DNA from: an uncultured archaeon
GTDB lineage: Archaea > Altiarchaeota > Altiarchaeia > IMC4 > SCGC-AAA252-I15
Assembly: GCA_902384455.1 (NCBI GenBank)
Contig: CABMCB010000071.1
Location: 59,774-123,773 of the forward strand
Length of the DNA stretch: 64,000 nt
Direction: 5' to 3'
A program made the position numbers and the translations under genes. This document shows, one piece after another, positions 54,667 through 59,800 of this stretch. The notes under the pieces were generated by a model, which ran no database searches, was not told the origin of the DNA, and saw only the letters and a list, made by a program, of their open reading frames with translations. The first letter of the stretch is position 1. Each line of letters opens with the position of its first letter.

Positions 54667-55008
54667 TACTGTGCAACTATGTAGTTATTAAAAGTAACAA
54701 TTATAACATTATAACCATTTAAATACCTGTTGGTCTGTCGGACTGCCGAGAAAGGGCGCAGACTGGCTGACGTAGTCCCCATAACTTACGCAAAACACCT
54801 TAAAAACATCGCATCAACGTTAATACTGTATTCCTACGCAAAAGCGGCATGAAACTATTACTGGAACTGCCTGTTTTCAAAGAGGTTTTCCCCCTTTTAA
54901 AGGCAATAAAAACCAAGTTCATGGCTGCTATCTATTGAAACTGGTTTCATAGTCGGGGTCTTATCCTGTTTCAGCCTGGTACTACTCATACGATTGAGGT
55001 GATCATTC

Positions 55009-55218
55009 ATGAAAGATTTGAAATTAGAAGTGAAAGGCATGCACTGCCACAGCTGCGAGATGCTCATAGAAGACTCTCTCGCAGAAGTCGCGGGGGTGCG
55101 CAAAGTCAAAGCCGACCACAAAGCCGGTTTAGTCAGAATCACAGCCGACGATTCAGTTAACCTGAACGCAGTGAAGAAGGCGATTGTGAAGGAAGGATAC
55201 GAGGTAGTTGAGGAATGA
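55009..55218 (+). CDS. copZ: Heavy-metal-associated (HMA) copper chaperone
   Basis: 69 aa with 'GMHCHSCEM' metal-binding motif. SD-like 'gaggtga' upstream. Confidence 0.8.
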   Translation: MKDLKLEVKGMHCHSCEMLIEDSLAEVAGVRKVKADHKAGLVRITADDSVNLNAVKKAIVKEGYEVVEE

Positions 55219-57080
55219 AAAACAATATGATGAAAGAAAAATTCGGCGTCGAAGGCATGACTTGCAGCGGCTGCGAGCGGATAATAGAAAAGAAGGTGTC
55301 TAAGCTGCCGGGCGTTACTAAGGTTTCCACGGACTTTCGGACCGGGAAAGGCAGCATAACCTACGACAAAAGCGCAGTAAGCCGCGAAGACATAATGGCC
55401 GAAATGAAGGATTGCGGGTACGTATGCTCTTTTGGCGAAGGAAAAAAGACGAGTCCCTACGCAGGCATATCCATCCTTTTGGGTGCGCTCATAGTTTTGG
55501 GCGGAGCCTACGTCCTCGCTGCGCCACGCATAGAAGGATTAATCCCCTCAGTAGACCAAAACACGTCGCTTATACTCCTATTCATAGTAGGACTGTTCAC
55601 GGGATTCCACTGCGTAGCAATGTGCGGCGGATTCGTAGTATCCTACACCACAAAATCCGCGGCAGAAGGCAAGGCCGGATTCAACTTAGGTTCCCACGCA
55701 GCATACGCCGTAGGAAAAACACTCTCCTATACAGTAATAGGGGCTACGTTCGGATTCATAGGAAGCTTCTTCACGTTCACACCCTTCCTAAGGGGAGCGG
55801 CAGCAATACTGGCGGGAGCATTCCTCGTAATATTCGGGCTGTCAATGCTTGACGCATTCAGCCAACTACGAAGGTTCAGACTTAAAACGCCATCCGTCAT
55901 GCAAAAACTCACATACAAATGGATGGGAAACAACTCAAACCCACTCATAATAGGACTACTGAACGGCCTAATGATAGCGTGCGGCCCCCTTCAGGCAATG
56001 TACCTGTTGGCTGCTGCAAGCGGAAGCGCCTACTTAGGCGGACTGTACCTTATGGCATTCGGCCTTGGGACGTTGCCTTTGCTTGTCGGATTCGGGGTTG
56101 TGACGTCGCTTGTTTCGGCGCAGTTCACTCATAAGATACTCAAGTTTTCCGGCGTATTCGTTGTGATTTTAGGGCTCATTATGCTTAACCGCGGGTTGAC
56201 GCTTACAGGCACAGGATACGATTTGAGTTCAATAGTGGCCGTCGCCTCCGCTTCAACGGCTATTCCGGAAGCTTCTGCGACCTCGCAGCAGCCGTCTTAT
56301 CAGGAAATCCGGATGGATGTTACTGCGGAAGGATGGAGTCCGGACTCGTTCGTTTTGCAGAAAGGCGTCCCAGTAAAGTGGGTTATCAACGTCAAGGAGC
56401 TCACCAACTGCAACAAAGCGATACAGGTGCCTAAACTGGGCTTATACTTCAACCTTAAGCAGGGAGTTCAGACTATCGAGTTCACTCCAAACGAGTCTGG
56501 GGTTATACCTTGGAGCTGCTGGATGGGGATGATTCCCGGCAGGTTCATAGTCAAAGACGACGCGGTAGCGGCGGGCGCAAACCCGATAGCGGCTGAGCCG
56601 TTCAAAACGCAAAATCCGCCAGCAGGCCAAAACCCAGCTAATCCGGCCCCGACTACTACGATAGCGGCGCAGCCGACAGTCCAGGTTTTACCTGCAGACC
56701 CATCAAGCCCATCCAATTACCAGGAAATCCGCATGGACGTAACGGCCTCAGGATTTTCCCCAAATAAGTTCGTGCTAAAGCGCGGAGTCCCGGTGAAGTG
56801 GATAATCAACGGGAAGCAACTCACAGGCTGCAACAGCGCAATCAAAGTGCCATCTCTAGGTCTGCAGTTCAATGTGAAAGAAGGCCTGCAGACGATAGAG
56901 TTCACTCCGAATGACGCGGGCACCATTCAATGGAGCTGCTGGATGGGTATGCTTCGCGGAGTCTTCGTAGTCCAAGACGACACGTCAAACGTTGCGGCCG
57001 CACTAAACACGGTCCAAGTTCCGCAAGGAGGAAGTTGTGGAGGCGGAGGTGGCGGCTGCGGCTGCGGGATGATGAGGTAA
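55215..57080 (+). CDS. Fusion protein: HMA domain, then a DsbD_2/UreH-like metal permease with an HCxxMCGG motif, then two cupredoxin-like repeats
   Basis: 'GMTCSGCERI' HMA motif; about 6 TM with 'FHCVAMCGG'. Two ~110-aa repeats follow ('YQEIRMDVTA…IEFTP…WSCWMGM'). C-terminal 'GGSCGGGGGGCGCGMMR'. Confidence 0.65.
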   Translation: MKNNMMKEKFGVEGMTCSGCERIIEKKVSKLPGVTKVSTDFRTGKGSITYDKSAVSREDIMAEMKDCGYVCSFGEGKKTSPYAGISILLGALIVLGGAYVLAAPRIEGLIPSVDQNTSLILLFIVGLFTGFHCVAMCGGFVVSYTTKSAAEGKAGFNLGSHAAYAVGKTLSYTVIGATFGFIGSFFTFTPFLRGAAAILAGAFLVIFGLSMLDAFSQLRRFRLKTPSVMQKLTYKWMGNNSNPLIIGLLNGLMIACGPLQAMYLLAAASGSAYLGGLYLMAFGLGTLPLLVGFGVVTSLVSAQFTHKILKFSGVFVVILGLIMLNRGLTLTGTGYDLSSIVAVASASTAIPEASATSQQPSYQEIRMDVTAEGWSPDSFVLQKGVPVKWVINVKELTNCNKAIQVPKLGLYFNLKQGVQTIEFTPNESGVIPWSCWMGMIPGRFIVKDDAVAAGANPIAAEPFKTQNPPAGQNPANPAPTTTIAAQPTVQVLPADPSSPSNYQEIRMDVTASGFSPNKFVLKRGVPVKWIINGKQLTGCNSAIKVPSLGLQFNVKEGLQTIEFTPNDAGTIQWSCWMGMLRGVFVVQDDTSNVAAALNTVQVPQGGSCGGGGGGCGCGMMR

Positions 57081-57100
57081 AAGGGAGGAGAGTGAAAAAA

Positions 57101-57583
57101 ATGTCAAATAAACAGATAGCGGCGGTTGCGTTCATACTGGTTGTGGCGGCAGCGTGGATGTTCGTCAAGCCCGGTCAAGCAAACGCAATTTCGGCAGCAA
57201 ACAGTCAAGCACAGGGAACTACCCCCTCAGTTACGTCCGACTCAAACACGGTGAAAATACCGTTGTCCGAAGTATCTGCTTCAATGAGGAAATACACGGA
57301 AAACTTAGATGGGGCCTCAGTTAGGTACATAGTGGTCTTAGGCTCCGACGGGCAGCCAAGAACGGCATTTGATGCATGCGAAGTTTGCGGCGGCGCAAAA
57401 GGATACCGGCAGGAAGGGAGTGAACTGGTGTGCAACAATTGCGGCAAGGCGTTTAGAGTTGACGACCTTGGCGCTAAGAATACGGCTGGAGGGTGCTGGC
57501 CGGTTAATCTGCCCCACAAAGTGGAAGGCGGCTACGTAGTAATAGCTAAGTCGGACCTGTCTGCAGGCAAAAGGTACTTTTAG
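57101..57583 (+). CDS. DUF2318-like membrane-anchored Cys4 protein
   Basis: N-terminal TM 'IAAVAFILVVAAAWMF', then 'FDACEVCGGAKGY…LVCNNCGKAF'. RBS 'gggaggag' lies 8 nt upstream of ATG 57101. Confidence 0.55.
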   Translation: MSNKQIAAVAFILVVAAAWMFVKPGQANAISAANSQAQGTTPSVTSDSNTVKIPLSEVSASMRKYTENLDGASVRYIVVLGSDGQPRTAFDACEVCGGAKGYRQEGSELVCNNCGKAFRVDDLGAKNTAGGCWPVNLPHKVEGGYVVIAKSDLSAGKRYF

Positions 57584-57619
57584 TCCTCCAAAACGCTTTA
57601 GCAAGCAAATACAGCCAAG

Positions 57620-59800
57620 ATGAAGACTAACTTGCGTATCTCCGGGATGCACTGCGCCAACTGCTCCACGCTCATAACCCGCACTTTAAAGAAGACGCCC
57701 GGAGTGACGGACGCAAACGTGAACCTTTCGACTGAAAAGGCGGCTGTTGATTACGATGAAACTAAGGTGTCTGTGCAGGAAATTATTTCCGCCGTAAAAA
57801 ACAAGGGTTATGGGGCGCAGGTTTCGACTGAAGCGGACAAGACGACTGAGGAACTGGAGAAGAAGGAGGAACTGGCAAGAACCAGTAAGTTGCTTTTTTT
57901 CAGCGTGATGCTGGCCGTTCCCGCCGCACTCTTAGGGATGGTCTTTATGGAGCGCGTCCCCTACGCAATTTACTTCCTGTTTCTTCTTGCGACGCCAGTG
58001 CAGTTCATAGCGGGAGCCCGTTTCTATAAAGGTGCGTGGTCCGCCCTGAAAAACAAGACGAGCAACATGGACACTCTGGTTGCGTTGGGGACGTCGGCGG
58101 CGTACTTCTACAGCGTAGTTGTGATGCTCACGAACCCGATGGGGAACCAGTACTTCGAGACCGCAGCAGTACTCATAACATTCGTGCTTCTTGGAAAGTA
58201 CCTTGAGGCGAAGGCTAAGGGGAAAACGAGCGAAGCAATAAAGAAGCTCATGGACATGAGCTCTAAGACGGCGACAGTAATCCGCGACGGCAAAGAACTG
58301 ATTCTTCCCGTAGAGCAGGTCGTAGTCGGAGACATAATACTCGTTAAACCCGGAGAGAAAATCCCGGTGGACGGCACAATCATATCCGGCGCAAGCAGCA
58401 TAGACGAATCGATGATAACCGGAGAAAGCGTTCCAGTCGAAAAAACAGCAGGAAACGCGGTAATCGGCTCAACGATAAACAAGCACGGAAGCTTCAAATT
58501 CAAGGCCACGAAAGTCGGCGCGGACACGACGCTCGCTCACATAATAAAGCTGGTGGAAGACGCGCAAGGTTCGCGCGCCCCGATACAGCGGTTCGCAGAC
58601 TCGGTCAGCAGCATCTTCGTCCCCGCAGTAATAACAATAGCAATACTCTCGTTCGCATTCTGGTACATACTCGCAGGAAAAACACTCGCATTCGCCCTCA
58701 TAATAGCAGTATCCGTCCTTGTGATATCCTGTCCCTGTGCGCTAGGCTTGGCTACACCCACCGCCATAATGGTGGGCATAGGCAAAGGCGCTGAGCTCGG
58801 CATACTAATCAAAAGCGGAGAAGCCCTTGAAACAGCCCAAAAAATAAACGCCGTCATATTCGACAAAACAGGCACCATCACAAAAGGAACGCCCTCAGTC
58901 ACAGACGTAATACCTCTACCCGGATTCACCGAAGAAGAAGCAATCACCTACGCAGCAAGCGTTGAGAAAAACTCAGAGCACCCGCTTGCCGAAGCAATAC
59001 TCAAACACGCCAAAGAAAAAGACGTGACGCCAACAGAAGTCACACACTTCACAGCAATACCCGGCCACGGAATAACTGCAACAGCCCACGGAAAAAAGAT
59101 TATCTTCGGCAACAGAAAGCTAGCGGCAGAACAAAAAATAGACACAACCCCCTTCGAAGACCGGCTCACTGCGCTCGAAGACGAAGGGAAAACCGTTGTG
59201 ATACTCGCAGTAGGCGGCACGCCTGCGGCATTGATTGCAATAGCCGACACAATCAAAGAAACGTCTCCTCCTGCAGTCGAAGAGCTGAAGAGAATCGGCG
59301 TCGAAGTCTACATGATAACAGGAGACAACAAAAGGACCGCGAAAGCAGTAGCAAAGAAAGCCCACATCGACAACGTCTTCTCCGAAGTCCTGCCGGAAGA
59401 CAAAGCCCGCCACGTCAAAGAACTGCAGGAAAAAGGCAAAAAAGTCGCAATGGTAGGCGACGGAATAAACGACGCACCCGCGCTCGCACAAGCAGACGTA
59501 GGAATAGTCATGGCCTCAGGCACCGACGTGGCGATGGAGGCCGGAGGAATAGTATTGATGAAAAACAATCCGGCTGACGTAGTAAAGGCGATTCGTTTAA
59601 GCAGGACCACTATGAGCAAAATAAGGCAAAACATGTTTTGGGCGCTCGTATACAACACGCTTGGGATACCTGTGGCTGCGGGAATATTCTATCCGTTCAC
59701 CGGGTGGCTTCTTTCTCCAATAATAGCCGGAGGCGCGATGGCGTTAAGTTCGGTGTCCGTCGTAAGCAACTCGCTGCTGTTGAAGTACAAGAAAATTTAA
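57620..59800 (+). CDS. copA: Copper-translocating P1B-type ATPase
   Basis: N-terminal HMA 'GMHCANC', TM6 'CPC' ('[12 protein letters not shown]'), phosphorylation site 'DKTGTIT', hinge '[10 protein letters not shown]' and HP motif 'SEHPLA'. Confidence 0.92.

Follow-up and report, generated by a model that had tools for sequence, protein, structure and literature searches.

What is a membrane protein that joins an HMA domain, a DsbD_2 core and two cupredoxin-like repeats doing in an operon with a copper chaperone and a copper exporter: moving copper out, taking it up, or carrying electrons? The window, i.e. the whole stretch of 64,000 nt that was analysed, carries at positions 55009-59800 (+) four genes encoding a CopZ-like protein, the fusion protein, an FtrD-like/DUF2318 protein and CopA, and all four ORFs were confirmed at the coordinates given in an earlier, sequence-only reading. 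Our answer, tentative and with a probability of about 0.4, is that the operon works as a copper-detoxification module: next to CopA, the fusion protein would pass cytoplasmic Cu(I) from one thiolate site to the next until it reaches acceptor domains that face outward. The operon comprises:

54936..54949 (no strand), perfect palindrome TGAAACTGGTTTCA, candidate operator of the cop operon, 60 nt 5' of the copZ ATG
55009..55218 (+), CopZ-like cytoplasmic Cu(I) chaperone, 69 aa (Pfam HMA, E 3.3e-15)
55215..57080 (+), 621-aa fusion protein with Pfam domains, identical to NCBI VVB53633.1 ('uncultured archaeon')
57101..57583 (+), FtrD-like/DUF2318 protein, 160 aa (PF10080, E 8e-26)
57620..59800 (+), CopA, P1B-1 type Cu(I)-exporting ATPase, 726 aa (E1-E2_ATPase, E 1.8e-61; one N-terminal HMA domain)

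The CopZ-like protein has its CxxC at residues 13-16, within the motif GMHCHSC, and is matched by the NCBIfam CopZ models below their equivalog cut-offs; its gene is preceded by a Shine-Dalgarno sequence (GAGGTGA) immediately 5' of the ATG, and its stop is overlapped by 4 nt by the start of the fusion gene. CopA scored 651 bits with TIGR01511 (copper-translocating P-type ATPase; cut-off 397) and possesses the motifs CPC (at 371), DKTGT (415), NX6YNX4P (671) and MXXSSX5N (707). Synteny of the fusion gene with CopZ and CopA is kept across approximately 80 related loci: CopA lies on the same strand and no more than 3 kb downstream of the fusion gene in 55 of the 61 loci that have room for it, and, among all 80 loci compared, a CopZ-like gene is found upstream of the fusion in 51 and an FtrD-like gene is present in 19. 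The four genes are an archaeal copper-handling operon, as had been read from the presence of CopZ and CopA, and the synteny agrees with this. That the physiological substrate is another soft metal, namely Ag(I), Hg(II), Au(I) or Cd(II), is very improbable: HMA, Cys-rich and Met-rich sites do bind several thiophilic metals, and weak HMA-level matches to the MerP, MerTP and ZntA models were obtained, but CopA shows every element of the P1B-1 Cu(I)/Ag(I) signature, the CupA-type C...CxMxM of the repeats (below) is a characterised Cu(I) site, and no mer, czc or ars genes are present within the four-gene operon.

The palindrome, TGAAACnnGTTTCA, occurs once in the window. It was found exactly in 26 related loci, against an expectation of approximately 0.06 such matches over 0.94 Mb, and with at most one mismatch in 34 related loci, i.e. 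in 35 sequences including the window. In most such loci it lies approximately 30-250 nt 5' of the first recognised cop-cluster gene, and it is usually adjoined by a membrane-tethered wHTH regulator with the motif CxHGxxCPMW in the loop between its two TM helices. Judged by its sequence conservation, the palindrome is a candidate operator of the cop operon and, together with the regulator, it is counted in favour of copper detoxification.

The fusion protein consists, in this order, of an HMA domain, a helix designated TM0, a six-TM DsbD_2 core, CupA-like domain 1, a Pro/Thr linker, CupA-like domain 2 and a Gly/Cys tail. Pfam returned HMA, DsbD_2 and two Cupredoxin_1 stretches, as in the domain parsing first made from the sequence alone. 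The parts in and before the membrane are:

55245..55421 (+), N-terminal HMA domain, residues 11-69 (E 7e-14), with GMTCSGC (C17/C20), predicted cytoplasmic
55461..55523 (+), extra helix TM0, residues 83-103 (hydropathy peak 2.36; AF2 helix 82-106)
55578..56177 (+), six-TM DsbD_2 core (PF13386), residues 122-321 (E 5.4e-43)
55608-55631 (+), HCVAMCGG, residues 132-139, near the middle of TM1
55980-55988 (+), CGP, residues 256-258, near the middle of TM4, at a helix break

The permease had earlier been given six TM helices; hydropathy and the AF2 model (mean pLDDT 73; approximately 65-85 in the TM region) give seven, TM0 and the six of the core. As this number is odd, the N- and C-termini would lie on opposite sides of the membrane, and the predicted loops hold nine Lys and Arg residues inside vs one outside. 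Furthermore, a LysM domain stands at the C-terminal end of the Methylocystis homologue and of homologues P0080, P0085, P0086 and P0097, and the linkers of the fusion are rich in Pro, Thr and Ser. The predicted topology is N-in and C-out, and helix count, loop charge and the LysM homologues all favour the extracytoplasmic position first assumed for the C-terminal repeats. H132, C133, M136, C137, C256, G257 and P258 are invariant in the core (among the 120 homologues listed, HCxxxCG is kept in all but three and CGP in all 120); the invariant soft ligands as a whole are C17/C20 on the cytoplasmic side, H132/C133/M136/C137 and C256 in the membrane, and C399/C435/M437/M439 on the outer side. We propose that the TM1 and TM4 residues may form an intramembrane Cu(I) site.

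The core is homologous to the six-helix core of DsbD, CcdA and ScsB: DsbD_2 and the DsbD TM domain are sister families, PF02683 is also matched by many fusion homologues, and the fusion core matches the DsbD TM region weakly (NF001419, E 1e-7). DsbD and CcdA have cysteines near the middle of TM1 and TM4, and since these positions are mirrored here, electron transfer is possible. In such an arrangement, which we consider unlikely but worth weighing, CopA would be the sole copper exporter, the CupA domains and the tail would buffer the Cu(I) released by it, and the DsbD_2 core would pass reducing equivalents outward from the cytoplasm by thiol-disulfide exchange, either keeping exofacial cysteines reduced or converting Cu(II) to Cu(I), much as DsbD/ScsB supports ScsC; the part of the HMA domain would be to sense copper and regulate the protein. 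The succession of fusion and CopA in 90% of loci would suit this arrangement, as would the CXXC-rich FtrD-like protein and the genes for VKOR (7 related loci) and a thioredoxin-like lipoprotein (WCSHC; 10 loci); the last two indicate exofacial thiol redox chemistry and are counted against detoxification. However, VKOR and thioredoxin-like genes occur at only approximately 10% of the loci and are absent from the window, HMA is a metal-binding and not a redox fold, and the fusion has no thioredoxin-like or Ig-like periplasmic partner domain, unlike DsbD and ScsB, with their fused thioredoxin fold. The conduit also leaves invariant His132, Met136 and the second TM1 cysteine unexplained: where DsbD, CcdA and ScsB have a single Cys flanked by Pro, the TM1 motif here is H-C-x-x-M-C-G-G, with two Cys, a His and a Met, and the core is joined to two kinds of metal-binding domain, which it is not in those proteins. 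As the membrane His, Met and third Cys would be superfluous for a two-cysteine disulfide relay, they are counted in favour of a metal relay. It counts against detoxification that the fusion's HMA domain may lie off the transport path and serve regulation, as its counterpart in CopA does. Both comparison systems have links with copper tolerance, dsbD having first been isolated as a copper-tolerance locus and Scs systems being protective against copper.

The C-terminal part of the fusion contains:

56295..56555 (+), CupA-type cupredoxin Cu(I) domain 1, residues 361-447, predicted exofacial (ligands C399, C435, M437, M439)
56715..56975 (+), CupA-type cupredoxin Cu(I) domain 2, residues 501-587 (ligands C539, C575, M577, M579; pLDDT 90-96)
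57027..57077 (+), C-terminal Gly/Cys tail GGSCGGGGGGCGCGMMR, residues 605-621 (C608, C615, C617)

The two domains are 68% identical to one another, carry WSCWMGM at C435 and C575, and have cores of approximately 87-95 aa, shorter than the repeats of approximately 110 aa reported at first. They match CupA in sequence (E 2.6e-13) and in fold, and by these measures belong to a characterised family, that of pneumococcal CupA. All four Cu(I) ligands are kept, and the first Cys precedes CxMxM by 36 residues without exception (142 of 142 domains); ligand conservation, which had been named beforehand as a test of the repeats, is complete across the homologues. Among the 120 listed, 22 have two CupA-type domains and 98 have one, and 108 have CGCG inside their last 30 residues; C615 and C617 of the tail are at least 90% conserved, and the tail is disordered in the AF2 model. 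The CupA copper-chaperone domain, for which 1,995 cluster representatives were found at E <= 1e-3, has so far been studied in pneumococcus only. As in S. pneumoniae CupA and the cupredoxin N-domain of its CopA (PDB 4f2e, 2mry, 4f2f), the ligands are Cys...Cys-x-Met-x-Met, and, as with CupA, the domain is membrane-tethered and its gene adjoins copA. Pneumococcal CupA, a small protein anchored by a single TM helix, works on the cytoplasmic face and gives Cu(I) to a CopA with a cupredoxin-type metal-binding domain (PMC7558416), whereas here the domain is duplicated, is fused to the C-terminal side of a 7-TM protein and has a predicted exofacial position, and CopA has an ordinary HMA domain. CupA also reduces Cu(II) in vitro (PMC7558416), an activity that would suit the reductant conduit.

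In the copper-detoxification module, CopZ would bind Cu(I) in the cytoplasm and pass it to one of two recipients, the fusion protein's N-terminal HMA domain or CopA, which exports copper at the expense of ATP. By ligand exchange inside the fusion, Cu(I) would leave the HMA CxxC site for a mid-membrane soft-ligand site (TM1 His132/Cys133/Met136/Cys137 and TM4 Cys256, in the DsbD/CcdA-type six-helix core). From there it would reach the flexible Gly/Cys tail and the outward CupA-type binuclear Cu(I) sites, of which there are two copies with the pattern C-x35-CxMxM. The exofacial domains would keep exported Cu(I), the fusion's own and probably that of CopA, off membrane and surface proteins. The analysis itself gives the domain identities, the predicted topology and the conservation of ligands, operon and operator; from these we infer metal rather than electron carriage by the TM core, the outward direction and these hand-off partners. 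E. coli CopA and CusF offer a parallel for a P1B ATPase that releases Cu(I) to a dedicated acceptor outside the cytoplasm, and Padilla-Benavides et al. reportedly found in 2014 that the periplasmic acceptor takes Cu(I) released by CopA; unlike the acceptors here, CusF is soluble, has an OB fold and supplies an RND pump. We know of no such extracytoplasmic CopA acceptor described for archaea or other single-membrane cells.

The genes had been called uncommon, yet the fusion family has at least 5,429 homologues, a lower bound, and at least 552 genomic loci among species-representative genomes. Its hosts are mostly DPANN and Altiarchaeota archaea, plus methanotrophs. In the literature, we found no functional description of the fusion as a Cop component, only a gene-table row and a member of a predicted regulon: in the gene table of a Chloroflexi MAG, successive entries are CopZ, a protein with DsbD_2 and cupredoxin domains, a P-type ATPase, a protein with an HMA domain and a CsoR-like regulator (PMC8756737), and, in gut Firmicutes, COG2836 (membrane protein, HMA IPR006121) and the DUF2318 family (IPR018758) belong to the predicted CsoR regulon (PMC4938975). 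For the whole fusion, the sequence-only statement that this is not a described Cop system agrees with this literature search; the repeats resolve into CupA, and resolution into a characterised family had been named beforehand as an outcome that would speak against that reading. Predicted CsoR control would imply induction by copper excess, and this context, together with the co-operonic CopA, indicates detoxification.

The same reading had suggested import or delivery to cuproenzymes: the CupA domains would capture Cu(I) and pass it through the TM cysteines to HMA and CopZ, or the copper would be delivered to extracytoplasmic cuproenzymes. Homologues in Methylocystis, Methylocapsa, Methylocella, Methylotetracoccus, Methylohalobius and Methanoperedens, most of them without an adjoining copA, count against detoxification, as uptake would fit the high copper demand of these hosts. 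PF13386, the family of the core, presumably includes UreH as a member. Six-TM UreH/SodT-type proteins are predicted nickel importers (PMC4284471). The layout, with a binding domain outside, cysteines in the membrane and HMA inside, recurs in the Mer import route (MerP, MerT and NmerA; MerTP fusions), a resistance-operon system likewise working by ligand exchange between outer, membrane and inner thiolate sites, and the NCBIfam MerTP and MerP models match the HMA part. The Mer TM fold is, however, unrelated (MerT has 3 TM helices), its outer domain is HMA and not cupredoxin, and its direction is inward to a reductase, of which there is none here; the MerTP and MerT models scored far below their cut-offs and only on the HMA domain. 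The archaeal gene is co-operonic with the exporter CopA at those 55 of 61 loci, so that import would make a futile cycle, and CsoR control, predicted in Firmicutes and suggested by the Chloroflexi neighbour, would mean induction by excess; the small-genome DPANN archaea that make up most hosts probably have no large copper demand. Import or cuproenzyme delivery fits the CopA/CsoR context poorly and is improbable, less likely than detoxification.

The FtrD-like protein, with the start chosen here, equals deposited NCBI VVB53635.1 exactly. Its N-terminus is anchored in the membrane by residues 6-22, and a Ser/Thr linker leads from there to a Rieske-fold domain on the outer face; no Tat signal was found in its sequence, and its invariant cysteines are five (C93-x2-C96-x14-C111-x2-C114 and C132) where four had been noted before. 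In the detoxification module, this Cys5 protein would be an optional component on the outer face, serving as one more thiolate acceptor or as a redox partner for the bound copper. C. jejuni FetA (DUF2318 and YHS; FetMP-FetABCDEF) is similar in its PF10080 domain, two CXXC motifs and fifth Cys, and is predicted periplasmic; the redox role proposed for its DUF2318 through the two CXXC motifs, where FetA and the thioredoxins FetE and FetF would pass reducing power along a chain (PMC10783030), would suit the reductant conduit. FetA is, however, an 8-TM protein with a YHS domain that works with an ABC transporter and thioredoxins, whereas here a lone domain sits on a single anchor, and both the FetA system and FtrABCD (with the cupredoxin FtrB) serve iron uptake and not copper. 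In the two bacterial loci examined, single-domain FtrD-like genes adjoin Cus/Czc-type efflux genes, and these efflux contexts are counted for copper detoxification; in one of the two, the neighbour is a CusB-like protein with a Cupredoxin_1 domain.

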